From an uncultured Planctomycetales bacterium (GTDB lineage: Bacteria; Planctomycetota; Phycisphaerae; UBA1845; PWPN01), in assembly GCA_964455315.1 (NCBI GenBank), contig CAYVVX010000055.1, positions 1 to 13,827 of the forward strand: DNA of 13,827 nt, given 5' to 3'. Below are positions 1 to 11,647 of this stretch, one piece after another (the first letter of the stretch is position 1; each line of letters opens with the position of its first letter). The notes beneath the pieces were generated by a model that searched no databases, was not told the DNA's origin, and worked only from the letters and a program-made list of their open reading frames with translations. The position numbers were made by a program, and so were the translations under genes.

Positions 1-477
1 GAGTTCAACAGCATCCCCTTCGACCTGGGTACGGTGGGGATGGCGAGGTCACCGCGCGATCCCGACTCGGCCAGTTCGCAGTTCTTCATCTGTCTCGGCC
101 GCCAGCCGCTGTTCGACGGGAACCAGACCGCGTTCGGCTACCTGGTGGGCAACGAGTCGTTCGAGACCATGCGCCGGATTCAGGCCGTGCCGACCGGTCC
201 GGGTGATCGCCCGCTCAAGCCGGTCTTCATCCGTGCCGTCTCCCTGGAGAACGTGCCTCCACCGCACCTGGATCGCAAGGACGCCCCGGCGCTGTCCTCC
301 GGCAGCACCCACGTCGGGCTGGACCCGGTCGGGTCCGCGAATGGAGGCCGTCTGCCGTCGTCGTCGGTCGGCCCGGCGGAGATCAAGCCGGACGATGACG
401 ATCTGAACGCCTGGAGCCTGTCCGCGGTGCTGAAACCCTCCTCACGGCCTGCCGAGGATGATCAATCGTCCCCTTGA
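1..477 (+). CDS. Cyclophilin-type peptidyl-prolyl cis-trans isomerase, 5'-truncated by the window edge, with a low-complexity C-terminal extension of about 65 aa
   Basis: Frame 1 reads from base 1 with no start codon. It has the conserved cyclophilin C-terminal core (…SMAN/R-G-P-xx-GSQFFI… then FG.V..G…V..I). After the domain end (…IRAVSLENV) the ORF continues through a P/S/D-rich tail to a stop at 475-477. Confidence 0.8.
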   Translation, partial: EFNSIPFDLGTVGMARSPRDPDSASSQFFICLGRQPLFDGNQTAFGYLVGNESFETMRRIQAVPTGPGDRPLKPVFIRAVSLENVPPPHLDRKDAPALSSGSTHVGLDPVGSANGGRLPSSSVGPAEIKPDDDDLNAWSLSAVLKPSSRPAEDDQSSP

Positions 478-553
478 GATCGCTTTAGTTCTCAGAAATG
501 GCATGTCCGCGACCGGGTAGCGCGTTGGGCCCGGTGCCCTGGTGCCCTTTCGG

Positions 554-582
554 TTGACATGTGCCGCCCGGCCAGCTAAAGT
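554..582 (+). promoter_or_regulatory. Candidate sigma70-type promoter for the asnO operon (TTGACA-N17-TAAAGT)
   Basis: A perfect -35 TTGACA lies at 554-559, a 17-bp spacer follows, and a -10-like TAAAGT lies at 577-582. It sits in the 300-bp intergenic region upstream of the GTG start at 780, implying a 5' leader of about 190 nt. Confidence 0.35.
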
Positions 583-779
583 GTCGTGTGCTAAGCATTT
601 GGGCGCGGTGCTGCGCCGGGACATCGGAGTCCCCTGCCTGGAAGTGGTCTGGTCCCGCCGGACCCTCCGGGGACTGCTCCTCCGTGGCTGTTGGCGCAGC
701 CGCCGGGAGCTGTGGCCGGCACCGGGCATGATGATTCCCTTACTACGTCAGCCAATCAACCTGAAAGTGAGCCCCATCC

Positions 780-2552
780 GTGTGTGGTATCTGTGGTGAC
801 ATCGTTTTTACCGCCGGCGGCGCCTCCACGGCGGCGGTGGGGCGGATGATGGAGGTGATGAGCCCGCGCGGCCCGGACGGCTTTGGAAGCTTCTCCCAGT
901 CAAGAGTGGCACTGGGGCACCGGCGGCTGAAGATTATTGACTTGAGCGAGCATGCCCAGCAGCCGATGGTGGATAGTGCCCTGGGGCTGGCGGCGGTCTA
1001 CAACGGAGCCATTTATAACTACCAGTCGCTGCGCTCGGAGCTCGAGGGCAAGGGCTACCGGTTCTTTTCGACCGGCGACACGGAGGTGATTCTCAAGGCC
1101 TACCATGCCTGGGGATCGCGCTGCGTGGAGCGCTTCAACGGCATGTTCGCCTTCGCGGTGTGGGAGCGGGACAGCGGCACGGTGATGCTGGCCCGGGACC
1201 GGCTGGGGATCAAGCCGCTGTACTACGCGGAGACCGCCGACGGCCTGCGCTTCACTTCGAGCCTGCCGGCGATCATCGCCGGAGGCGGGGTGGACACCTC
1301 CATCGATCCGGTGGCGCTCCACCACTACCTGACCTTCCACTCGGTGGTACCCCCGCCGCACACCATCCTGCGCGGCGTGCGCAAGCTTCCGCCGGCCACT
1401 CTCCTGACCCTGCGCGCCGACGGATCGCGGCGGGAGGAAACCTACTGGCGCCCGCGCTTCGAGCCGGATGCCGAGGAACGCAGCTACACGCTCGATGACT
1501 GGAAGCGGCGGCTGCTGGACGAACTGGGCAAGGCCATCAGCCGGCGCATGGTGGCCGATGTCCCCGTGGGCGTCCTGTTGTCCGGCGGGGTGGATTCGAG
1601 CCTGGTGGTGGGCATGCTGGCCAACGCGGGCCAGCAGGGCCTGGAGACGTTCTCGATCGGCTTCGAGAGCGTCAACGACGAGAAAGGCGACGAGTTCCAG
1701 TACTCCGATGTGATTGCCGAGCGGTTTTCGACGCGGCATCATCGCATCCGGGTGGACTCGGACCGGGTGCTTCCGGCGCTGGAGGCGTGCGTGCGATCGA
1801 TGAGCGAGCCGATGGTCAGCCATGACTGCATCGGGTTCTACCTGCTCAGCCAGGAGGTCAGCCGGCATGTCAAGGTGGTCCAGAGCGGCCAGGGGGCGGA
1901 TGAGGTCTTCGCTGGCTACCACTGGTACCCGCCGATGATGGACAGCGGTGATGCCGTCGGCGACTACGCCCGGGTTTTCTTCGATCGCGACCATGCCGAC
2001 TACACCCGGGCGGTGGCTCCGGGCCTGGCCGGCAGGGATCACAGCACCGCGTTTGTCGCCGAGCATTTTGCCGCGGACGGCGCCCCGGCGGCCGTGGACA
2101 AGGCCCTGCGGATCGACACCACGGTCATGCTGGTCGACGACCCGGTCAAGCGGGTGGACAACATGACCATGGCCTGGGGGCTCGAGGCCAGGGTGCCGTT
2201 CCTGGATCACGAACTGGTGGAGATGTCGGCCCGCATCCCCGCGGAATTCAAGGTCAGGAAGGGCGGCAAGCACGTTCTCAAGGAAGCCGCCAGAGAGGTT
2301 ATTCCCTCCGAGGTCATCGACCGGCCCAAGGGCTATTTCCCGGTGCCCGCTCTGAAGTACCTGCGCGGGCCCTACCTGGAGCGGGTGCGGGACGTGCTCA
2401 ACGCTCCGGCCGCGAGGGAGCGGGCGCTGTTCAATCGGGCGTACGTGGACGAACTGCTGATTTCTCCGGAGGACGGCATTACTCCACTGGGCGGCTCGAA
2501 GTTGTGGCAGGTCGCCCTGCTGGAGTACTGGCTGCAGGTGCAGGGACTATGA
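780..2552 (+). CDS. asnO: Asparagine synthetase-family glutamine amidotransferase (class II/Ntn, N-terminal Cys); NAGGN-cluster amidotransferase AsnO-like
   Basis: The GTG start is immediately followed by Cys (MCGICGD…), the obligatory Ntn nucleophile. An AsnB-like glutaminase domain (RRLKIIDL, YNGAIYNY, GMFAFAVWE) is followed by a PP-loop synthetase domain (SGGVDSS). It is 590 aa. Its stop overlaps the next gene's start (ATGA). Confidence 0.9.
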   Translation: MCGICGDIVFTAGGASTAAVGRMMEVMSPRGPDGFGSFSQSRVALGHRRLKIIDLSEHAQQPMVDSALGLAAVYNGAIYNYQSLRSELEGKGYRFFSTGDTEVILKAYHAWGSRCVERFNGMFAFAVWERDSGTVMLARDRLGIKPLYYAETADGLRFTSSLPAIIAGGGVDTSIDPVALHHYLTFHSVVPPPHTILRGVRKLPPATLLTLRADGSRREETYWRPRFEPDAEERSYTLDDWKRRLLDELGKAISRRMVADVPVGVLLSGGVDSSLVVGMLANAGQQGLETFSIGFESVNDEKGDEFQYSDVIAERFSTRHHRIRVDSDRVLPALEACVRSMSEPMVSHDCIGFYLLSQEVSRHVKVVQSGQGADEVFAGYHWYPPMMDSGDAVGDYARVFFDRDHADYTRAVAPGLAGRDHSTAFVAEHFAADGAPAAVDKALRIDTTVMLVDDPVKRVDNMTMAWGLEARVPFLDHELVEMSARIPAEFKVRKGGKHVLKEAAREVIPSEVIDRPKGYFPVPALKYLRGPYLERVRDVLNAPAARERALFNRAYVDELLISPEDGITPLGGSKLWQVALLEYWLQVQGL

Positions 2553-4330
2553 GCACATCAACGGGACGAAACACGCGCAGGCGCGGCGGCAGCCACCGCC
2601 TGGATCGTCAAAAGGGCCCCTCGCTGCGAAGCTGGGAGCAACCCATCTCGCCGCTGGCCGACCACATGGCCCGCGACGCGGTGGTCGACCTGGGCTGGGG
2701 CCGGCTGATCTTCGGCCACACCTTCGAGAGCAACGAGTGCCTGGCCAGGACGCTGGCCTCGGAGCAGCCCGGCCGGCGCGACGTGGCCTGGTATCTCCGC
2801 GACCCGCACGTGGTTCTGTCAATCCTTCCGCAGGATCTCTTTCTCGACCCGTCCCACACCTATCGGCTGTGGGGGCACCAGTACCGAGCCTCGGGGAAGA
2901 CGGCGAACGGCTTCCTGGTCCGGCGTATCCGCAGCCGCGCGGATTCCGACGAGGTCAATCGGATCTACGCATCGCGGGGCATGGTGACCTGCGACGCGGA
3001 CTTCATGCTCGACAAGCGGGCCAGCAAGCTGCGCACCTACCTGGTGGCGGAACGCATCCCGGATCGGCGCATCCTGGGGACGGTCACGGGTATCGATCAC
3101 GTGGAGGCGTTCAACGATCCGGAGAACGGCGCCAGCCTGTGGTGCCTGGCCGTGGATGCCCAGGCGGACAGTCCAGGGGTCGGCGAACACCTGCTCCGGC
3201 ACCTGGTCGAGCACTACCTGGCCCGCGGACGAGCCCACGTGGATCTCTCGGTGATGCATGACAACTCGGAGGCCATTCGTCTCTATGAGAAGATCGGCTT
3301 CACCCGGGTGCCGGTCTTCTGCGTCAAGCGCAAAAACTCGTTCAATGAGCCGCTGTTCACGGCTCCCCGGCCGGAAGCGAAGCTCAATCCCTACGCAAAG
3401 ATCATCACCGATGAGGCGCGAAGGCGCGGCATTCGCGTGGAGATCATCGACGAGGAGGCCGGGTACTTCAATCTTCAGATGGGCGGTCGCAGCGTAATCT
3501 GCCGGGAATCACTGACTGAACTGACCACGGCGGTGGCAATGAGCCGCTGCGATGACAAGCGGGTGACCCGCCGGCTGTTCAAGTCCGCGGGGCTGCACGT
3601 CCCGGCTCAGCAATCCGCCGACGGGGGGGCAGGGGACGCGGCCTTTCTGGGCGAATACACCCGGGTGGTGGTCAAGCCGGCTCGCGGGGAACAGGGTGCC
3701 GGCATCAGCGTCGACGTTCGAGAAGAGCAGGAGCTGCGCCGCGCGGTGGATCTGGCTCGATCGGTCTGCCCGGAGGTCATCCTCGAGGAGATGGTTGACG
3801 GCCAGGATCTGCGCGTCATCGTGATCGACGACGAGGTGGTGGCCTCCGCCGTGCGGAAGCCGGCGATGATCACCGGAACCGGCGAACACACCGTCCGGGC
3901 CCTGCTCGAGAAGTACAACCGTCGCCGGGCCGCGGCGACCGGCGGCGAAAGCCGCGTGCCGTTGGATGACGAGACCCTGCGCTGCCTGCAGGTGCAGGGG
4001 TGCGCCTGGGACGACGTCCCCGCGGCCGGTCAGATGCTGCTGGCGCGCAAGACCGCCAACCTGCACACCGGGGGGACGATTCACGACGTCACCGGACAAC
4101 TGCACGGCGCGCTGCGCGAGGCGTCCGTTCGAGCGGCGCGGGCCATCGGTATTCCCGTGGTGGGGCTTGACCTGCTGGTGCCCGACGTCGGCAGGCCCGA
4201 CTACGTTCTGATCGAAGCCAACGAGCGGCCGGGACTGGCCAATCACGAACCGCAGCCGACGGCCGAGCGGTTCATTGATTTCCTGTTCCCACAGACGACA
4301 TCATCTCGGCCGGTTGACTCGGTCGATTGA
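2549..4330 (+). CDS. ngg: N-acetylglutaminylglutamine synthetase-like bifunctional protein (N-terminal GNAT acetyltransferase + C-terminal ATP-grasp ligase)
   Basis: ATG 2549-2551 overlaps the asnO stop TGA 2550-2552, which suggests translational coupling. The listed ORF's upstream M at 2504 lies inside asnO and is rejected. The GNAT region is …VTGIDHVEAF…WCLAVDAQ…GVGEHLLRHLVEHY…AIRLYEKIGF. The ATP-grasp region is …VVVKPARGEQGAGISV…LEEMVDGQDLRVIVIDDEVV…LIEANERPG. It is about 593 aa, as expected for Ngg. Confidence 0.85.
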   Translation: MSTSTGRNTRRRGGSHRLDRQKGPSLRSWEQPISPLADHMARDAVVDLGWGRLIFGHTFESNECLARTLASEQPGRRDVAWYLRDPHVVLSILPQDLFLDPSHTYRLWGHQYRASGKTANGFLVRRIRSRADSDEVNRIYASRGMVTCDADFMLDKRASKLRTYLVAERIPDRRILGTVTGIDHVEAFNDPENGASLWCLAVDAQADSPGVGEHLLRHLVEHYLARGRAHVDLSVMHDNSEAIRLYEKIGFTRVPVFCVKRKNSFNEPLFTAPRPEAKLNPYAKIITDEARRRGIRVEIIDEEAGYFNLQMGGRSVICRESLTELTTAVAMSRCDDKRVTRRLFKSAGLHVPAQQSADGGAGDAAFLGEYTRVVVKPARGEQGAGISVDVREEQELRRAVDLARSVCPEVILEEMVDGQDLRVIVIDDEVVASAVRKPAMITGTGEHTVRALLEKYNRRRAAATGGESRVPLDDETLRCLQVQGCAWDDVPAAGQMLLARKTANLHTGGTIHDVTGQLHGALREASVRAARAIGIPVVGLDLLVPDVGRPDYVLIEANERPGLANHEPQPTAERFIDFLFPQTTSSRPVDSVD

Positions 4331-4345
4331 GGGTCTTGTATCCAC

Positions 4346-5458
4346 ATGGCCAAGAAGCTTCCCATTGATACGAACTACCTGGCGGACGTCCTGGTCCGAC
4401 TCCTGAATATTCCCAGCCCCAGCGGGTACACCAACAACGTCGTCCGGTTTCTGTGCGAAGAGCTGCGCTCCCTGGGCATCGGGGTGGAGCTGACCCGGCG
4501 GGGTGCTGTTCGGGCCACCCTGAAAGGCAGGCAGGCCCATCCGGGCCGTGCGGTGGTATCGCACCTGGATACGCTGGGGGCGGTGGTGACCCAGCTCAAG
4601 GACAACGGGCGGCTGGCAGTTCTGCCCGTCGGCACCTGGTCCAGCCGTTTCGCGGAGGGGGAACGGGTGACGGTTTTCACCGACGAGACCAGCTATCGCG
4701 GCACGGTGCTGCCGCTCAAGGCCTCCGGGCATGTCTACAACGAGGGGATCGACTCGCAGCCGGTGTCCTGGGACCAGGTGGAGGTGCGGATCAACGAGCG
4801 GTCCATGACCGGGGAGGATCTGGCGGCACTGGGCTTTCGCGTGGGCGACATGGTTGCGTTCGACGCCCGCCCGGAAGTTGCCTCCAGTGGGTTCATCTGC
4901 TCGCGGCACCTGGACGACAAGGCCGGCGTGGCCTGCATGCTGACCGCGGCGCGAACCATCGTCCAGGCGGGCATCGAGTTGCCGCTCAACTGCTACCTGC
5001 TGTTCACCATTTTCGAGGAGGTGGGCACCGGTGCTTCGGCGGTGCTTCACGGTGACGTGGCCGAGCTGGTGGCGGTGGACAATGCGACGCCGGCACCGGG
5101 ACAGAACTCGACCGAGCTGGACGTGACCTTCGCGATGATGGACTCGACCGGTCCGTTCGACTACCACCTGACCCGCCGGCTGCTGGACCTGGCCAAGGAG
5201 TACGAGATTCCCCATCGCCGGGACGTGTTCCGGTATTATCGCTGCGACGCGGCGTCGGCGGTCGAGGCGGGCAACGACATCCGCACCGCGCTGGTCTGTT
5301 TCGGCGTTGATTCCTCGCACGGCTACGAGCGGACTCACTTGGACGGGCTGGCCCATCTGACCCAACTGCTGATGGTCTACGTGCAGACGGGACTGACCTT
5401 TCCCCGCGATGCGGTGGATCTCGGCCCGGTCGAGGGATTCCCGGAGCAGCCGATGTGA
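4346..5458 (+). CDS. M42-family metallopeptidase (glutamyl aminopeptidase-like, FrvX/YsdC family), as found in NAGGN clusters
   Basis: ATG lies 15 bp after the ngg stop, with GAGGG upstream. M42 hallmarks are present: HLDTLGAVVT…NGRL (like the AHMDEIG motif), SRHLDDKAGV, FEEVG, VDNAT and a C-terminal SSHGYERTH. It is 370 aa. Confidence 0.85.
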   Translation: MAKKLPIDTNYLADVLVRLLNIPSPSGYTNNVVRFLCEELRSLGIGVELTRRGAVRATLKGRQAHPGRAVVSHLDTLGAVVTQLKDNGRLAVLPVGTWSSRFAEGERVTVFTDETSYRGTVLPLKASGHVYNEGIDSQPVSWDQVEVRINERSMTGEDLAALGFRVGDMVAFDARPEVASSGFICSRHLDDKAGVACMLTAARTIVQAGIELPLNCYLLFTIFEEVGTGASAVLHGDVAELVAVDNATPAPGQNSTELDVTFAMMDSTGPFDYHLTRRLLDLAKEYEIPHRRDVFRYYRCDAASAVEAGNDIRTALVCFGVDSSHGYERTHLDGLAHLTQLLMVYVQTGLTFPRDAVDLGPVEGFPEQPM

Positions 5459-7068
5459 TCCGTTCGCCGGTACCAGGCCGACCAGCGGGGGCAGGTCGTC
5501 GATCGGGGGGTGCCTGTGTCATCGCTGTACTCGTGCTGATGTGCTGCGGCTGCGAACGGGAAAGCGAAGGTATTCCGAGCACTCTGCCGGCCCAGGCGAC
5601 ACCGCGGAAGGGCGGCGAACTCATCGTCGCGCTGCAGTCCGAAGGTACCAGCCTCGATCCCCACGCGGTGACCGACGCCGCCTCCATGCGACTCATCGAG
5701 AACATGCACGCCACCCTCTTGCGCTATGCGCAGGACTACGGTGAGACGGAGCCGGACCTCGCCCGGCGCATCGATCTGTCGGCGGACGGTCTTCAGGTAA
5801 CCATCCACCTGCGGCCGGGGGCGCGGTTCCATTCCGGCCGCGAAGTTGCGGCGGAGGATGTCATCTTTTCCATCGAGCGGATTCGCCGGTTGCGGGTGCG
5901 CGCGGATCAGTTCGCGGCCGTCGAGCGGATGGATGCTCCTGATCCACATACCGTGCGGCTGTATCTGTCCCGACCGGCGGCGCCGCTGATGATAAGCCTG
6001 TCGAATCCGATGAACGCCATCGTCGACGCGGAACTGGTCAAGCAGGCCGACGATCGATTCGACAGCGTCGACGCCGGCGCCGGCCCGTTTCAACTGGTGG
6101 AGTGGCGTCGCGGCCGGCATCTGAAGCTGAAACGGTTCGACGGCTACTACCTGCCCGATCGCCCTCGCCTGGATCGGCTGGTGTACCGCCCGATCGCCGA
6201 CGAAACCTCGCGGTCGACCGCACTGCTGACCGGACAGGTGCATCTCATGCCCGACGTGCCGGTGCAGGACGTGGACAGTCTCAGGGCCGCGCCGGGCGTT
6301 GAGGTCCGCTCGGTGTCGGGCACGTTCTGGGAGTACATCGGGCTGAACACCCGGCGGCCTCCGCTCGACGACGCCCGCGTGCGCCAGGCGGTGGCCTGGG
6401 CGATCGATCGCGAGCTGCTCAATCGGCTGGTCAAGTTCGGCCACGCGACCGTACTGTCCGGTGGACACATTCCCCCGAACCACTGGGCCCGCGCCGAGTT
6501 CGAACTCTATCCGCGGCGGGACATCGAGCGGGCCAGGGGTCTGCTGGCCGATGCGGGCCTGCCGGAGGGCTTCGACGCGACGCTGAAGGTGGGATCGTCG
6601 TTTCCCTATCAGGTGCTGGCGGCCGAGGCCATCAAGCAGATGGTCGCCGAAGCGGGCATCCGCGTGCATCTTCGCAGCCTGGAGTCGAGCGTGTTTTTCG
6701 ACGCACTGGCTCGTGGCGATTTTGACATGACCGTGGTCGGCTGGGTGGGCCTGGTCGATCCGGACGAGTGGACCTGGAACCTGTTTCACAGCGAGGGCAA
6801 ATGGAACCAGCAGGGGTATGCGAATCCGGTGCTCGACGGGCTGCTCGATGAAGGACGGCGCACACCTGGCCGTGAGGATCGCCGCGACCTGTACGCGCGG
6901 GCCCAGCGGATCATCGCCGATGATGCCCCGATGGTATTCCTCTACGTGAATGACCAGATCGCGGCCATGCGCCGGGACGTGCGCGGGTTCGAGCCGCACG
7001 CGACGGCGTCGCTGCTTGCGCTGCGCGACGTGTGGCTGGCCAGTCCATCGCCGGCGGAGGCGCGCTGA
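5455..7068 (+). CDS. ABC transporter substrate-binding protein, family 5 (peptide/nickel/opine; DppA/OppA-like), with probable signal/lipoprotein peptide
   Basis: ATG 5455-5457 overlaps the M42 stop TGA 5456-5458. The N-terminus has a basic n-region (…GAGRRSGG), a hydrophobic h-region (ACVIAVLVLM) and a Cys cluster (CCGC). The mature part (GGELIVALQSEGTSLDPH…) is typical of cluster-C SBPs. It is 537 aa. Confidence 0.8.
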   Translation: MIRSPVPGRPAGAGRRSGGACVIAVLVLMCCGCERESEGIPSTLPAQATPRKGGELIVALQSEGTSLDPHAVTDAASMRLIENMHATLLRYAQDYGETEPDLARRIDLSADGLQVTIHLRPGARFHSGREVAAEDVIFSIERIRRLRVRADQFAAVERMDAPDPHTVRLYLSRPAAPLMISLSNPMNAIVDAELVKQADDRFDSVDAGAGPFQLVEWRRGRHLKLKRFDGYYLPDRPRLDRLVYRPIADETSRSTALLTGQVHLMPDVPVQDVDSLRAAPGVEVRSVSGTFWEYIGLNTRRPPLDDARVRQAVAWAIDRELLNRLVKFGHATVLSGGHIPPNHWARAEFELYPRRDIERARGLLADAGLPEGFDATLKVGSSFPYQVLAAEAIKQMVAEAGIRVHLRSLESSVFFDALARGDFDMTVVGWVGLVDPDEWTWNLFHSEGKWNQQGYANPVLDGLLDEGRRTPGREDRRDLYARAQRIIADDAPMVFLYVNDQIAAMRRDVRGFEPHATASLLALRDVWLASPSPAEAR

Positions 7069-8009
7069 TGGCGGCGTACCTGCTGCGGCGGCTGGGGAGT
7101 TCGCTGGTCGTGTTGCTGGGGTTGTCGCTGCTGGCGTTTGCCCTGGTGCGACTGGCCCCGGGCGACACGGTCACGGCGATGCTGGGTGTGCATCACAACC
7201 CGTCCGATGCCGAAGCACTGCGCGAGCGGTACGGCCTGGATAAGCCGCTGCCCGTGCAATACGGCATCTGGCTGTCGCGCGTGGCCCGGGGCGACTTCGG
7301 GCGCAGCATCAGCGGGCGTGCGGTGGTGGCGGAACTGGGTGACGCCCTGCCGGTGACGCTCGAATTGATGCTGCTGAGCCTGGGCTTTGCCGTGGCGGTG
7401 GGTCTGCCGCTGGGGGTGCTCGCGGCGTTGCGCCGCAACCGCCCGGCGGACCTGGTTGCGACCTTCGCGGGACTGGTGGGCATCTCCATCCCGGGCTTCT
7501 GGCTGGGTACGCTGCTGATCCTGCTGTTCGCGCTGATGCTCCGCTGGCTGCCGGCCGGTCAGTTCGTCGACGCCGACGTCGATCTCGCTGCCAACCTCCG
7601 GCACATGGTCCTGCCGGGGCTGGCGCTGGGGACGGCGGTGGCGGCCGTGATCATGCGCATGACACGGGCGTCGATGCTGGAGGTGATCCGGCAGGATTAC
7701 GTGCGGACGGCGCAGGCCAAGGGGCTGCCGCGGAGAAGCGTTGTATTCAAGCATGCCCTCCGCAACGCCGTGATCCCGGTGTTGACGGTGGTCGGGATCC
7801 AGGCCGGGTACCTGCTCGGCGGGTCGGTGGTCATTGAGGAAGTGTTTTCGCTGAACGGCGTGGGCCGGCTGGCGCTGCGGGCGATCGGCAACCGCGACTA
7901 TCCGCTGCTTCAGACGGTGATTCTGATGATCGGCACCGCGTTCGTGCTGATCAATCTCACGGTGGATCTGGTGGTGGCATGGGTGGATCCGCGGATCAAG
8001 CGGGGCTAA
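7068..8009 (+). CDS. ABC transporter permease (DppB/OppB-like)
   Basis: ATG 7068 overlaps the SBP stop (TGATG). The N-terminus MAAYLLRRL… is typical of DppB. It has multiple TM segments and the EAA-like region …RTAQAKGLP…. The listed GTG start at 7032 lies inside the SBP gene and is rejected. Confidence 0.85.
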   Translation: MAAYLLRRLGSSLVVLLGLSLLAFALVRLAPGDTVTAMLGVHHNPSDAEALRERYGLDKPLPVQYGIWLSRVARGDFGRSISGRAVVAELGDALPVTLELMLLSLGFAVAVGLPLGVLAALRRNRPADLVATFAGLVGISIPGFWLGTLLILLFALMLRWLPAGQFVDADVDLAANLRHMVLPGLALGTAVAAVIMRMTRASMLEVIRQDYVRTAQAKGLPRRSVVFKHALRNAVIPVLTVVGIQAGYLLGGSVVIEEVFSLNGVGRLALRAIGNRDYPLLQTVILMIGTAFVLINLTVDLVVAWVDPRIKRG

Positions 8010-8047
8010 GGGCGGCGCGGCGCCCCCCCGGGCCGCGCGGGTGACGT

Positions 8048-8881
8048 ATGAGCGACATGTGGCGACGCTATCGACGCAGCAGGCCGGCGGTCATCGCCCT
8101 GGCGGTGCTCGCGACCTATGCGCTGGCGGCGCTGCTGGCGAGCGCGATCGCCCCGTACGATCCATTGGCGATCAGCGCTATCGGCATCTCACCTCCCGGG
8201 CCGGACCACCTGATGGGGACCGACCAGCTCGGTCGGGACATCTTCAGCCGGGTGCTGTTCGGCGCCCGGCTTTCCCTGCGCGTCGCCGGCATCTCGGTGC
8301 TGATCGCGCTGACCGCCGGGGGGCTGCTGGGTCTGGTCGCCGGCTACTTCGGCGGCGCCCTGGATGCGTTATTAAGCCGCCTGACCGACATGATGTTCGC
8401 CCTGCCGGACATCCTTTTGGCCCTGGTGATCATGTCCATATTGGGGCAGGGCCTGACCAACATCTCCATCGCGGTCGGGCTGGTGTACATCCCCATATTC
8501 ACCCGGATCTGCCGCGCTGCCACGCTGTCGGTGAAGGAGCGACCCTTTGTCGAAGCCGGGCGGGCCCTGGGGCTCTCCCACGCGCGGCTGCTGCTGCGCC
8601 ACGTGCTGCCCAACATCCTCACGCCGCTGATCGTGCAGGCCTCGCTTTCGTTTGCGTTCGCGCTGTTGTCCGAGGCGGCGTTGAGCTTCCTGGGATTGAG
8701 CGGAGAGACCGACGCACCCCTGTGGGGCCTGATGCTCCGGCGCGGCAAGGACGTGATGCACCTGGGCTGGTGGATCGCGGTGTTTCCGGGACTGGCCGTC
8801 ACGCTGGCGGTTCTGAGCTTGAACATCGTCGGCGACGGCCTGCGCGACGCGCTGGACCCGCGACTTCGGCAGCAGGTCTGA
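8048..8881 (+). CDS. ABC transporter permease (DppC/OppC-like)
   Basis: It lies 38 bp after the previous permease. A hydrophobic TM1 follows the N-terminus …RRSRPAVIALAVL…, then the DppC-type region …GTDQLGRDIFSRVLFGARLSL… and the EAA-like motif …EAGRALGLSHARLLLRHVLPN…. It is 277 aa. Confidence 0.85.
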   Translation: MSDMWRRYRRSRPAVIALAVLATYALAALLASAIAPYDPLAISAIGISPPGPDHLMGTDQLGRDIFSRVLFGARLSLRVAGISVLIALTAGGLLGLVAGYFGGALDALLSRLTDMMFALPDILLALVIMSILGQGLTNISIAVGLVYIPIFTRICRAATLSVKERPFVEAGRALGLSHARLLLRHVLPNILTPLIVQASLSFAFALLSEAALSFLGLSGETDAPLWGLMLRRGKDVMHLGWWIAVFPGLAVTLAVLSLNIVGDGLRDALDPRLRQQV

Positions 8882-8952
8882 CCGGCGCCCGTGCTGATCG
8901 GCAGCAACGCGCGCGAATTGAGCTTGACGCGGAGCGGGATTGACCTGGCGGA

Positions 8953-9288
8953 TCAGCTTCGATGGTTGCCGCTGGCGGCCATTCTTGTCCGGATCGCGCG
9001 CTTCTTCCGTGGCGGCATTTCGGCGTGAGGCGCCTCGCTCGGTTTCGAACCGGCGGCCTTCTGCTTGTGGGCCCATTCACTGAAGGCCGCCGCGACCGAA
9101 CCGGCCTCCGACGCGGTCACCTCGATGCGAACGATGGTGTGATCGCTGCCGCGCCGCTCGAGCAGCAGGCAGGGCACCGACTCGGTTTTGGAAATCACCC
9201 GCACCGCGGATCGAACCGTGAGCCGTTCCGATCCGCTGGTGTGATGAAAGATGGGTTCGCCCAGCTTCAAACGACCTCTCGCCGCCAT
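8953..9288 (-). CDS. Hypothetical small protein (about 111 aa) with a Lys/Arg/Pro-rich C-terminal tail
   Basis: The internal ATG (complement of 9286-9288) is preceded on the minus strand by GAAAGGA 5 nt upstream, a strong RBS, so this start is preferred over the ORF-track start at 9375. It is convergent with the permease gene and divergent from the NfeD operon. I recognise no family. Confidence 0.5.
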   Translation of the reverse strand: MAARGRLKLGEPIFHHTSGSERLTVRSAVRVISKTESVPCLLLERRGSDHTIVRIEVTASEAGSVAAAFSEWAHKQKAAGSKPSEAPHAEMPPRKKRAIRTRMAASGNHRS

Positions 9289-9384
9289 GGTGGTCCTTTC
9301 AACCTGCGACCGAGGAAGCAAACTGAACGCTCTAGCCTGAGCTTCATCATGATCGGGCGGCCTGCCGAAGTCCATAGCCCCGGG

Positions 9385-9414
9385 TTGGGTAGAGACTTCC
9401 CCAGGCTTTATAAT
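9385..9414 (+). promoter_or_regulatory. Candidate sigma70-type promoter for the NfeD-flotillin operon (TTGGGT-N18-TATAAT)
   Basis: A perfect -10 TATAAT lies at 9409-9414 and a -35-like TTGGGT at 9385-9390, with an 18-bp spacer. An inverted repeat CACGC-TGAAC-GCGTG at 9422-9436 overlaps the predicted +1 region. The RBS AGGAG (9496-9500) precedes ATG 9510. Confidence 0.4.
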
Positions 9415-9509
9415 TCCCCTGCACGCTGAACGCGTGGTATGCTTCTCTCAGGAATGGGGCAGGTTCGCCCGGATTTCAGGCGTCGTCCGAAGAATCAGGA
9501 GCAACCGTC

Positions 9510-10286
9510 ATGAATGCCGCAATAATGATAGATAACGGGGTGCTGGCTGCGGTTGGGGAGTTGGGCATGTGGTCCTGGCTCCAATCGGCGTATGTCATCT
9601 GCCTGATCGTCGGCGGCGGGATGCTGGCGGTATCCACACTCCTGGGCGGGGATTCGCACGGTGATGTCGATGCCGGCGGCGACCTGGGCCTGGATGGGCA
9701 CGCGGATCTCGACGGTGCCGACTTCGACGCGGACACCGGCGGACTCGACGCTGACGCCGCCCATGGCGCCGACCTCGTCCATGCCGATGCCGCTCATCAC
9801 GGGGCGATGATCGACGGGGCATCGCTGGCGTCATGGTTTTCGATCCGATTTGTCATCTATTTCATGGCCGTCTTCGGCCTGATCGGCACCATCCTGAGCT
9901 ACCTGAGCGGGGCCGGGCCGCTGGCCAGCTTCGTCGCGGCCATGGTCGGCGGCGTACTGGTGGGGCAGATCGTCCACCAGGCCATCCGCTGGCTGCGCCG
10001 CAGCGGCGGCAACAGCGCCCTGGTGGTCGACGACTATCTCAACCGCAGAGCCCGGGTCACAGTGACCATCGCGCCGTCAGCGAAAGGCGAAGTCTCGCTG
10101 GAGCTGCGCGGGGACACCCGCTATGTGCCGGCGCGGGCCCGTCGCAGCGACGAGGCGTTCAAGATCGGTGACGACGTGGTCGTGGTCGGGTGGTCACAGG
10201 GCACCGCGGAGGTGCTCTCGGTGAAGGAGCACGAGTTTCTGACCGAAGGGCGTCCTAACACGAAGCATCAACCGGAGGTTGTCTGA
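9510..10286 (+). CDS. NfeD-family membrane protein (short YuaF-like form: TM helices + C-terminal OB-fold), flotillin partner
   Basis: It has an N-terminal TM helix, then an Asp/Gly/His/Ala-rich stretch of about 55 aa, then 2 TM helices (…FVIYFMAVFGLIGTIL…, …FVAAMVGGVLVGQIV…), then a C-terminal beta-rich region (RARVTVTIAPSAKGEVSLELRGDTRYVPAR…DDVVVVGWSQGTAEVLSV) typical of the NfeD OB-fold. Its stop overlaps the flotillin start (TGATG). Confidence 0.8.
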   Translation: MNAAIMIDNGVLAAVGELGMWSWLQSAYVICLIVGGGMLAVSTLLGGDSHGDVDAGGDLGLDGHADLDGADFDADTGGLDADAAHGADLVHADAAHHGAMIDGASLASWFSIRFVIYFMAVFGLIGTILSYLSGAGPLASFVAAMVGGVLVGQIVHQAIRWLRRSGGNSALVVDDYLNRRARVTVTIAPSAKGEVSLELRGDTRYVPARARRSDEAFKIGDDVVVVGWSQGTAEVLSVKEHEFLTEGRPNTKHQPEVV

Positions 10287-11647
10287 TGAACACGCTGATC
10301 CTGATGGACATCATGGACGCGGCCATGATCGGGGCCGGGCTGCTGCTGGTGGTGATCGCCTTCGCCACGCTGATCGCCAAGATCATGGTGGTGGGCAATC
10401 CCAGCGAGTTGCTGGTCATTACCGGCCAGCGTTCCCGCGAGGGGCTCGGCTACCGCACGCTCATCGGCGGGCGCACGCTGGTGGTGCCCATCATCGAGAA
10501 GGTCGCCCGCATCAGCCTGCGCAACATGCAGGTCGAGCTGGAGGTCAAGGCCCAGTCCGGCGGCGGCAAGATGATCCCGGTGACCGTGACGGGCGTCGCC
10601 TATGTGACGGTATCCTCCGACGCCGACATCCGCGGGGCGGCCATCGAGCGTTTCCTGGGCCAGCCGGAGGGCGAGATCCAACTCGTCTCCCGCGAGACGC
10701 TGGAGGGCGGTCTGCGCGCGGTGATCGGCAAGATGACCCCGGAAGAGATCGTCGAGGACCGTGACAAGTTCGTGGCCACCGTCATGAACGAGGTCAACGA
10801 CGACTTCCGCAAACTCGGGCTGGTCATCGACAGCGTGAACATCCAGAATGTGCATGACGAGGAACAGTACCTCGAGTCGATCGCTCGCAAGGCCTCCGCG
10901 GCCGTGCGTGCCGAAGCCCGTCAGTACGAGGCTCAGCGGAAATCGGAGGCCGACATCAAGGAGGCCGAGGCCGACGCGCTGGCGCGCGAGGCCCGCGCCG
11001 AGCGGGACGCCGAGGCGCGATCCGCCGAGGCGGCCGGACACCAGAAAGCCGAGGCGGCCCGCCTGGGGGCGGAGAAGTCCATCGCCGAGGCGGACAATGC
11101 CCTGCGCATCCGCAAGGCGGAGCTGGCCAGGGAGGCGGAGCTGAAGGAGGCGGAGACGCAGCGTGCCGCGGCGGAGGCGGCCGAGGCCCACCTGCTGGCG
11201 ACACGGGTCAAGCAGGCGGACGCATCCCGCCTGGTGGCCATCGCCGACGCGGAAGGCAAGGCCGCCACCGTACTGGAGCAGGGCAAGGCCCGGGCCGCGT
11301 CGATCGCGACCATCGGTGCCGCAATACAGAAGCATCCGGAAGCGTTGAAGGTCATGCTGGCGGAGATGATGCCCGACGTGGTCAAGGAGCTGACCAAAAC
11401 CATCGCCAACGTGGAGTTGGGCGACGTGACCGTGATCGACGGGGGCAGCGGCAGCGGGATCGCCACGGCGGCACTGGGGCGGGCGCGGATGCTGTCGGAG
11501 TCGCTGGCCACGCTGGAGTCGGTGCTGGGGATCGACCTGCGCGAGCTGACCAGGCAGATCGCCTCCAACGCCGGCAAGGGTGGCGACGACGCCAGGAGGA
11601 TGACGCCGCCGGGGCCGTCGCGCGGCGAGGATACGCTGACCGGCTGA
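10286..11647 (+). CDS. Flotillin-like SPFH/band-7 protein (FloT/YuaG-type)
   Basis: It has an N-terminal membrane anchor (…GAGLLLVVIAFATLIAKIMVVG…), an SPFH domain (…RTLVVPIIEKVARISLRNMQVELEV…GGLRAVIGKMTPEEIVEDRDKF…) and a long Glu/Ala-rich coiled coil (EAEADALAREARAERDAEAR…AELAREAELKEAETQRAAAEAAEA), the classic flotillin EA-repeat. It is 453 aa. Confidence 0.9.
   Translation: MNTLILMDIMDAAMIGAGLLLVVIAFATLIAKIMVVGNPSELLVITGQRSREGLGYRTLIGGRTLVVPIIEKVARISLRNMQVELEVKAQSGGGKMIPVTVTGVAYVTVSSDADIRGAAIERFLGQPEGEIQLVSRETLEGGLRAVIGKMTPEEIVEDRDKFVATVMNEVNDDFRKLGLVIDSVNIQNVHDEEQYLESIARKASAAVRAEARQYEAQRKSEADIKEAEADALAREARAERDAEARSAEAAGHQKAEAARLGAEKSIAEADNALRIRKAELAREAELKEAETQRAAAEAAEAHLLATRVKQADASRLVAIADAEGKAATVLEQGKARAASIATIGAAIQKHPEALKVMLAEMMPDVVKELTKTIANVELGDVTVIDGGSGSGIATAALGRARMLSESLATLESVLGIDLRELTRQIASNAGKGGDDARRMTPPGPSRGEDTLTG

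Follow-up and report, generated by a model that had tools for sequence, protein, structure and literature searches.

What is part of a peptide importer doing at the end of a gene cluster for making an osmolyte? N-acetylglutaminylglutamine amide (NAGGN) is a widespread bacterial osmolyte. The genes asnO and ngg, together with a gene for an M42 family peptidase, encode an osmotically induced compatible-solute pathway (PMC8070244), and in the literature that we searched, no transporter linked to or specific for NAGGN has been described. On contig CAYVVX010000055.1 of an uncultured Planctomycetales bacterium (assembly GCA_964455315.1), this gene trio leads directly into genes for a peptide-type substrate-binding protein (SBP) and two permeases, and no ATPase genes accompany them. 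We analyzed the entire contig, 13,827 bases with a G+C content of about 66%, which we call the window; a second, independent Logan assembly (L001), made from this sample, has the genes in the same order. We report that the join between the NAGGN trio and the importer recurs as a minority variant centered on the Planctomycetes-Verrucomicrobia-Chlamydiae (PVC) superphylum. Judging from gene order and protein sequence, we give an even chance to the reading that the module would serve uptake or recapture of NAGGN or a close relative, energized by ATPases encoded elsewhere in the genome.

RESULTS

An importer without ATPase genes is joined to the NAGGN genes

Six genes, all on the plus strand, make up the unit. 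The first, asnO (780 to 2552), encodes an N-acetylglutaminylglutamine amidotransferase (TIGR03104, 1008 bits against a cut-off of 570; Pfam GATase_7 and Asn_synthase). It is followed by ngg (2549 to 4330), which encodes an N-acetylglutaminylglutamine synthetase with GNAT and ATP-grasp Pfam matches (TIGR03103, 861 bits against 569), and by the gene for the M42 family peptidase of the NAGGN system (4346 to 5458; TIGR03106, 550 bits against 398; Pfam Peptidase_M42), whose nearest homologues, at 65 to 68% identity, are from Phycisphaeraceae. All three pass the NCBIfam equivalog cut-offs, and the NCBIfam models for NAGGN genes cover this three-gene trio only. The importer genes come next: a predicted substrate-binding lipoprotein of family 5 (Dpp/Opp/Nik type; SBP_bac_5, 281 bits) at 5455 to 7068, an OppB/DppB/NikB-type permease (permB; BPD_transp_1_N and BPD_transp_1) at 7068 to 8009, and an OppC/DppC-type permease (permC; OppC_N and BPD_transp_1) at 8048 to 8881, which is the last gene of the unit. 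In a neighbor-joining tree, the SBPs nearest to that of the window are from Tepidisphaeraceae; together with the M42 homologues, this makes a member of the Phycisphaerae the probable source of the window. Exact-sequence look-ups returned no record identical to the SBP (read from its GTG start) or to the second permease, and the only recorded form of the SBP has the shorter start of the source annotation (P0001). An open reading frame (ORF) that covers permC in another frame (8041 to 8943) was rejected, since it has no family match and 8048 to 8881 encodes a full OppC-type permease.

The genes are tightly packed. The stop codon of asnO and the ATG of ngg overlap as ATGA (2549 to 2552), and 15 bp separate ngg from the M42 gene. 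At the boundary between the trio and the importer, the M42 stop codon (TGA, 5456 to 5458) overlaps the GTG start of the SBP gene (5455 to 5457), which gives a 4-nt overlap, GTGA. A first-pass annotation, made from the sequence alone, had proposed a start-stop overlap at this point, and the overlap does exist; what did not stand is its reading as ATGTGA at 5455 to 5458, with ATG as the SBP start. The hexamer lies at 5453 to 5458, and its ATG (5453 to 5455) is rejected as an SBP start because it belongs to the M42 frame, where it is the last codon. The start in the source annotation, ATG 5539 (P0001, 509 aa), was rejected as well: the product would begin with MCCGCER..., and the hydrophobic leader and the Cys of the homologues would be lost. 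Of the in-frame starts upstream, only GTG 5455 brings back the signal peptide (...GGACVIAVLVLMCCGC). In most SBP homologues, the leader ends with [AG]C, and a Shine-Dalgarno-like GGAG lies 8 nt upstream of the GTG. The end of the leader is unusually rich in Cys (LMCCGC), and the SBP start calls of P0008 and P0016 are shortened in much the same way as that of P0001. The two remaining junctions are as the first-pass annotation had them. The SBP stop codon (TGA, 7066 to 7068) and the ATG of permB (7068 to 7070) share a base in TGATG at 7066 to 7070, with GGAGG before the permB start, and a 38-bp spacer (8010 to 8047) separates permB from permC.

We scanned the sequence for E. coli-type transcription signals. 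A sigma-70-like promoter match (TTGACA-17-TAAAGT, 554 to 582, plus strand) lies upstream of asnO; it is the sole match in positions 1 to 10000, where 1.0 is expected by chance. Just before it, a terminator-like hairpin (522 to 546) follows the upstream cyclophilin gene. On the plus strand from 780 to 8881, the scan found no promoter-like or terminator-like site, and the one terminator-like hairpin inside the unit (3939 to 3921) is on the minus strand. After permC, no terminator was found by this method, which is tuned to signals of the E. coli type. The six genes asnO, ngg, M42, SBP, permB, and permC are probably cotranscribed as a single unit.

The join between trio and transporter recurs in the PVC superphylum

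Is this arrangement a peculiarity of one contig? We aligned 27 SBP homologues (A1) and ran a scan over GTDB in which each species was represented by one genome; it produced 80 loci with flanks of about 10 kb. Their annotation relied on tblastn, for which the proteins of the window, an OppD-type ATPase, and a DUF1028 protein were the queries. The NAGGN trio adjoins an orthologous SBP in 27 of the 80 species-level loci. In 25 of these, asnO-ngg-M42 is colinear with the SBP gene and immediately upstream of it. The other two, from a member of the Phycisphaeraceae (L026) and from a "delta" metagenome-assembled genome (MAG; L042), have the reversed order, in which SBP-permB-permC leads into asnO-ngg-M42. 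Linked loci come from Phycisphaerae/Tepidisphaerales, MAGs labeled Planctomycetaceae, Kiritimatiellia, Verrucomicrobia, and Lentisphaeria, so that nearly all belong to the PVC superphylum, and their SBPs are 44 to 59% identical to that of the window. A functional tie between the transporter and the NAGGN genes, which the first-pass annotation had suggested, is supported by this adjacency, and coincidence is ruled out because the adjacency is found in two gene orders and several classes.

The boundary between the M42 and SBP genes is close in most linked loci, with gaps from -8 to about 190 bp; five loci have the same -4 overlap as the window. Overlap of the M42 stop with the first start in the SBP frame is possible in this way in L014, L015, L016, and L083, and the source gene calls of L172, which is the same locus as L016, use it (8841-10004 and 10001-11575). 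Two Planctomycetota loci, L016/L172 (L172:5275-11575) and L086, have kept asnO-ngg-M42-SBP with no permease genes within 10 kb. Since the M42-SBP junction is tight and is kept when the permeases sit elsewhere, the gene order suggests that the M42 enzyme and the transporter may form the "salvage" half of the cluster. In the long-read "delta" MAG with the reversed order, permB (L042:11500-12427) was recovered in two overlapping tblastn pieces, which suggests a frameshift that is due either to a sequencing error or to decay.

Orthologous modules are also found apart from the trio. SBP-permB-permC occurs without ATPase or NAGGN genes within 8 to 10 kb in Planctomycetales ZRK34, three "delta/proteobacterium" MAGs, L028, and Oligoflexus, and also in Vulgatibacter. 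One of the unlinked "delta" MAGs does carry the trio, which lies on the same 3.8-Mb contig at a distance of about 620 kb. For another, an M42 homologue was met on a contig equal in length to that of the SBP. In the neighbor-joining tree (no bootstrap), the NAGGN-linked SBPs and the unlinked PVC/"delta" SBPs are interspersed with each other, apart from a Firmicutes group.

The survey was also run in reverse. We scanned JGI metagenome contigs with an alignment of M42 proteins (A3) and obtained 80 NAGGN loci, 52 of which have at least 1.5 kb of downstream sequence. An SBP or permease gene follows the M42 gene in none of these 52 assessable loci; one metagenomic NAGGN locus has a 32%-identical family 5 SBP upstream, on the opposite strand. 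The two surveys bear on the question, raised by the first-pass annotation, of how often a family 5 SBP is linked to NAGGN loci: the link is present in 27 of the 80 loci chosen by their SBP and in 0 of the 52 chosen by their NAGGN genes. Because none of the 52 carries the transporter, the join is a minority variant, centered on the PVC lineage. Within the PVC superphylum, the gene neighborhoods present the importer as a fixed companion of the NAGGN genes.

ATPase genes are missing, and the permeases keep their coupling loops

What could energize the importer? Neither an ABC (ATP-binding cassette) ATPase nor a remnant of one was found in the 13.8-kb contig: with E. coli DppD, E. coli DppF, an OppD-like protein of Planifilum, and NosF as tblastn queries, the best E value is 0.41, and the six frames of the window contain no Walker A or LSGGQ motif. 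The plus-strand genes next downstream encode a membrane protein and an SPFH/flotillin protein, and no ATPase. Compared with type I importers of the PepT family (Opp/Dpp/Nik), the module has an SBP with a leader and two distinct permeases with EAA-type loops, and the co-encoded D and F ATPases (ABC_tran plus oligo_HPY) are absent. The first-pass annotation had stated that no ATPase genes belong to the module in the window, and both searches agree with it.

This state is lineage-wide in Planctomycetota and no product of a mis-called region; five linked loci from sister PVC classes carry ATPases. In those five (L014, L017, L024, L032, and L035, from Kiritimatiellae, Verrucomicrobia, and Lentisphaeria), two OppD/F-type genes directly follow permC. 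Nine Planctomycetota loci in which the trio leads into the SBP gene have no ATPase genes, over a downstream flank of about 8 kb in six of them (L007, L009, L015, L027, L029, and L083) and of 1.4 to 2.2 kb in the other three (L020, L031, and L056). The two reversed-order loci, L026 and L042, are also without ATPase genes. Where contexts were annotated with Pfam, glycosidases or convergent genes occupy the ATPase position. A convergent ABC ATPase gene does lie at the contig end of the Tepidisphaeraceae locus L020 (9599-10375, minus strand), about 600 bp after permC; its product is 36% identical to the OppD-type query and probably belongs to a different ABC family.

The importer genes themselves are well preserved. 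The ORFs of SBP, permB, and permC are intact in about a dozen ATPase-less species, with 55 to 65% identity to the window. In the window, permB keeps its EAA-type coupling loop (TAQAKGL..., which aligns with TARAKGL...ALRNAMLPVVT of DppB), and permC does so too (VEAGRALGLSHARLLLRHVLPNILTPLIV in the translation; VEAGRALG...LPNILTPLIV). The orphan multitask ATPases MsmX and MsmK energize sugar importers that have no ATPase of their own (PMC7658222). Because the ATPase-less permeases described here are intact and have kept their coupling loops, it is natural to suppose that their ATPases would be supplied in trans, as they are to the sugar importers served by MsmX and MsmK.

The SBP lacks the residues that anchor free dipeptides

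What might the SBP bind? It falls below every NCBIfam equivalog cut-off, those of GsiB, NikA, OppA, and others; the best score is 184 bits against the GsiB model, whose cut-off is 594. Its fold is placed by sequence matches to solved SBPs, the nearest being AgaA (6hlx, 213 bits), an unnamed SBP (5u4o), GsiB/YliB, HbpA, and DppA. We take the ligand of AgaA to be agropinic acid, a small Glu-lactam derivative. That of GsiB and HbpA is glutathione (in part from PMC3295651). The nearest solved SBPs would, on these assignments, bind small ligands derived from Glu or Gln, which is a hint in favor of NAGGN.

Dipeptide binding by E. coli DppA offers a more specific comparison. Arg355 of DppA is assumed here to contact the C-terminus of the dipeptide. 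Asp408 contacts its charged N-terminus (PMC3295651). Both positions were confirmed in the DppA sequence of E. coli MG1655, and we aligned DppA with 81 members of the SBP family by MAFFT. The column of Asp408 is a gap in all 81, followed by Leu or Phe (GWVG-[LF]VDPD versus GWTGDNGDPD in DppA), and an equivalent of Arg355 is missing in 79 of the 81. In place of Arg355, Phe is found in the window SBP, in 20 of 28 NAGGN-linked members, and in 9 of 11 unlinked PVC/"delta" members; Firmicutes mostly have Asn or Trp. Pairwise HMMER alignment agrees with MAFFT on the DppA anchor columns. The window SBP has neither of the two anchors by which a DppA-type dipeptide-binding protein is recognized. Its pocket is thus not one made to hold a peptide whose termini are free and charged, and the missing anchors disfavor plain Gln-Gln and other free dipeptides, and with them the idea that the importer supplies precursors. 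N-acetylated, C-amidated NAGGN would be compatible with such a pocket, which is evidence of a permissive kind only. While comparing DppA sequences, we noted that PDB chain 8z1z_F has VQDPY and GWTGRN in place of the wild-type VQRPY and GWTGDN (E. coli MG1655 dppA, L089:7099-8706, minus strand), an apparent R355D/D408R charge swap at both ligand-anchoring residues.

Firmicutes orthologues have a different gene context

In Firmicutes-type loci, and in a few others, the SBP is 41 to 51% identical to that of the window, and the gene order is SBP-permB-permC, usually two ATPase genes, and then a DUF1028 gene. There are 37 DUF1028-type loci (L038-L085, L005, L018, and L174; for example, L174:5937-15443), from Halobacillus, Halanaerobium, Sporolactobacillus, Lachnospiraceae, and others. 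A gene for a PucR-like regulator and an Amidohydro_1 gene then follow in 15 to 18 Bacillaceae loci, and in B. alveayuensis, an M20 peptidase gene is next in the cluster. With this content, the Firmicutes cluster looks like an uptake-plus-amide-hydrolase unit. The literature searched held no useful function for DUF1028, and its sole PDB relative is 2imh. Two Paenibacillus loci (L043 and L045) have SBP-permB-permC-DUF1028 with no ATPase, an independent loss in Firmicutes, and Planifilum (L005/L018) has one ATPase gene left.

Other features of the window

Upstream of the unit, positions 34 to 477 (plus strand) encode the C-terminal part of a cyclophilin, assigned by family match. The 3' boundary of the unit is a putative convergent ORF of 111 aa (8953 to 9288, minus strand), which lies outside the unit. 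It is preceded by an AAGGA-like ribosome site. Neither Pfam nor NCBIfam has a family that matches it, and tblastn against 86 related loci (L001-L086) gave no match. Next come genes for a 258-aa membrane protein without a family match (9510 to 10286, plus strand) and for the SPFH/flotillin protein (10286 to 11647, plus strand); the two share base 10286 between stop and start and resemble an NfeD-flotillin pair. Farther downstream are a methyltransferase gene on the minus strand and a gene for a class I glutamine amidotransferase.

DISCUSSION

In the literature that we read, the role of the third gene of the NAGGN trio is only guessed at (PMC8070244 among the sources). We infer from the order and content of the genes how the unit may work: its cotranscription, its ligand, where its ATPases come from, and the part played by the M42 enzyme. 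In a cell under osmotic stress, the genes would be transcribed from a promoter upstream of asnO, for which the match at 554 to 582 is a weak candidate, and Ngg and AsnO would make NAGGN. The lipoprotein SBP could then capture NAGGN or N-acetylglutaminylglutamine (NAGG), or similar terminally blocked Gln peptides, that have leaked from the cell or have been released by its neighbors. In this importer, a type I ABC system of the PepT family, the SBP is the extracytoplasmic receptor, and PermB and PermC form the membrane channel; import through PermB and PermC would be driven by two OppD/F-type subunits encoded elsewhere in the genome, and the cytoplasmic M42 hydrolase may act on the imported or stored compound.

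Several observations weigh against this proposal. The scans for promoters and terminators used E. coli-type consensus sequences, which may not apply to Planctomycetes. The 52 metagenomic loci without a transporter tell us that NAGGN producers generally do without one. Conversely, orthologous modules exist without adjacent NAGGN genes in ZRK34, the "delta" MAGs, Oligoflexus, and Vulgatibacter, and the Firmicutes orthologues have DUF1028 and amidohydrolase genes as their context. Nor is the pocket decisive: many family 5 SBPs for ligands other than peptides (sugars, opines, and metals) also lack the Asp and Arg anchors, and only classical free dipeptides are excluded. As for the ATPases, a profile of five D-type ATPases from NAGGN-linked PVC loci (A2) brought up generic or fused OppD/F proteins as its top 120 matches, and none of these shared a contig with an ATPase-less module.

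Some of these points would fit a different ligand. The importer may carry an opine-like or gamma-glutamyl compound, another amide, or an osmoprotectant, and may be coregulated with NAGGN synthesis through a shared osmotic or nitrogen stress. The nearest solved relatives, which bind agropinic acid or glutathione on the assignments made above, would agree with this, as would the Firmicutes orthologues beside DUF1028, Amidohydro_1, and PucR-type genes with no NAGGN genes and the unlinked orthologues in several genomes. However, at least four PVC classes have preserved the physical linkage to the trio, which comes in two gene orders, the SBP gene remains beside the M42 gene where the permeases have moved away, and an unlinked "delta" genome carries the trio as well; we consider this explanation unlikely. 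Another possibility is that the importer feeds NAGGN synthesis, by taking up ordinary di- or oligopeptides of Gln and Glu from which the M42 aminopeptidase would free the amino acids. Three glutamines are used per NAGGN (PMC8070244), the classical activity of M42 enzymes is that of an aminopeptidase (Pfam PF05343, "glutamyl aminopeptidase"), and the M42 and SBP genes are the tightest-joined pair. Yet the SBP family is without the equivalents of Asp408 and Arg355 that anchor free peptide termini, and the M42 gene is in the trio even where the transporter is absent, which makes precursor supply quite unlikely.

It could also be asked whether the module transports anything at all. Repeated loss of ATPase genes (in Planctomycetota, the "delta" MAGs, Oligoflexus, Vulgatibacter, and Paenibacillus), the two loci that have retained the SBP alone, and the permB of L042 in its two tblastn pieces would be expected of a relic, or of an SBP that acts by itself, for example, as the input of a sensor. 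But in about a dozen ATPase-less species the three ORFs are intact, with identities of 55 to 65%; the loops that couple to the ATPase are conserved, the start-stop overlaps are maintained, and sharing of ATPases is established for other ABC importers (PMC7658222). Decay or a function other than transport is very unlikely in the light of this. The window is a short MAG contig, so a chance adjacency or an assembly artifact has to be considered too; the same order in an independent assembly and the linkage in 27 species-level loci refute it, and we give it next to no weight.

Uptake or recapture of NAGGN, the reading that we prefer for the window, may be extended to the whole SBP-permease family, although only tentatively. 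All members would then be NAGGN-specific uptake systems. In the PVC superphylum, they would serve recapture and turnover, with the M42 enzyme as a NAGGN/NAGG hydrolase; in halophilic and gut Firmicutes, together with the DUF1028, amidohydrolase, and PucR-type genes, they would provide a route by which NAGGN from other members of the community is catabolized or scavenged. If this is true, both DUF1028 and the M42 enzyme of the NAGGN system gain a function.

Osmolyte-serving ABC importers and importers that rely on trans-encoded ATPases are both known already; what would be new is their combination in a NAGGN cluster. To a specialist, this will be moderately interesting and not very surprising. 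With the recurring join of trio and importer, there is for the first time a candidate NAGGN transporter that can be put to the test, and it makes both NAGGN transport and the role of the M42 enzyme directly accessible to experiment. If the candidate holds, the "make it and recapture it" logic of glucosylglycerol would extend to a peptide osmolyte. The loci also provide a phylogenetically resolved case of PepT-family importers shedding their ATPase genes; the documented examples of shared ATPases are, to date, mostly sugar importers.

How does the module compare with systems that are already understood? AgaA is the closest solved SBP by sequence; it is a distant relative, however, from an opine catabolic system of Agrobacterium with no link to NAGGN. 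With DppABCDF and GsiABCD of E. coli, the unit shares an SBP_bac_5 receptor, B- and C-type permeases, and the EAA-type loop, but it has no DppD/DppF genes and no Asp408 or Arg355, and it scores below the equivalog cut-offs. GgtABCD of Synechocystis is the nearest precedent for the function that we propose: an ABC importer for the cell's own compatible solute that recaptures what leaks. It differs in that the transporter family and the solute are others and that there is no physical fusion to biosynthetic genes; we take it to belong to the sugar-type CUT1 family, with ggtA lying apart from ggtBCD in the Synechocystis genome. GgtABCD re-imports leaked glucosylglycerol (PMC5002435), and in the reference list of that article, the ATPase gene ggtA and the ggtBCD cluster are the subjects of two separate papers. 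The importers served by MsmX in Bacillus subtilis, by MsmK in streptococci, and by a multitask ATPase in Streptomyces lividans resemble the module in having an SBP and two permeases without an ATPase of their own (PMC7658222). They are carbohydrate importers with one homodimeric ATPase, whereas in the family of the window the usual ATPase is a heterodimer of D and F subunits that have oligo_HPY tails.

The closest comparison is with other NAGGN clusters. Those of Sinorhizobium meliloti and Pseudomonas aeruginosa have the same enzymes in the same order. The P. aeruginosa operon (PA3459-PA3461) comprises three genes, beside which lies a divergent MarR regulator, and includes no transporter (PMC8070244); the SBP and the two permeases at the 3' end set the window apart from it. 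The first-pass annotation had described the canonical NAGGN operon as free of transporters, and this is right for P. aeruginosa and for all 52 metagenomic loci. It does not hold for S. meliloti pSymB (L087:1053-10710, CP130053.1), where a complete Dpp-type importer of five genes (an SBP, two permeases, and two ATPases), followed by a GntR-like ORF, immediately precedes asnO-ngg and has the same orientation. In this strain, the GntR-like ORF is apparently frameshifted, and the PLSDB gene table for pSymB omits the permeases and one ATPase. The pSymB SBP is 31% identical to that of the window and the permeases are 44 to 47% identical, and pSymB is without the M42 gene; its SBP, too, lacks equivalents of Asp408 and Arg355. 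A peptide-type importer beside the NAGGN genes is not unique to the PVC variant.

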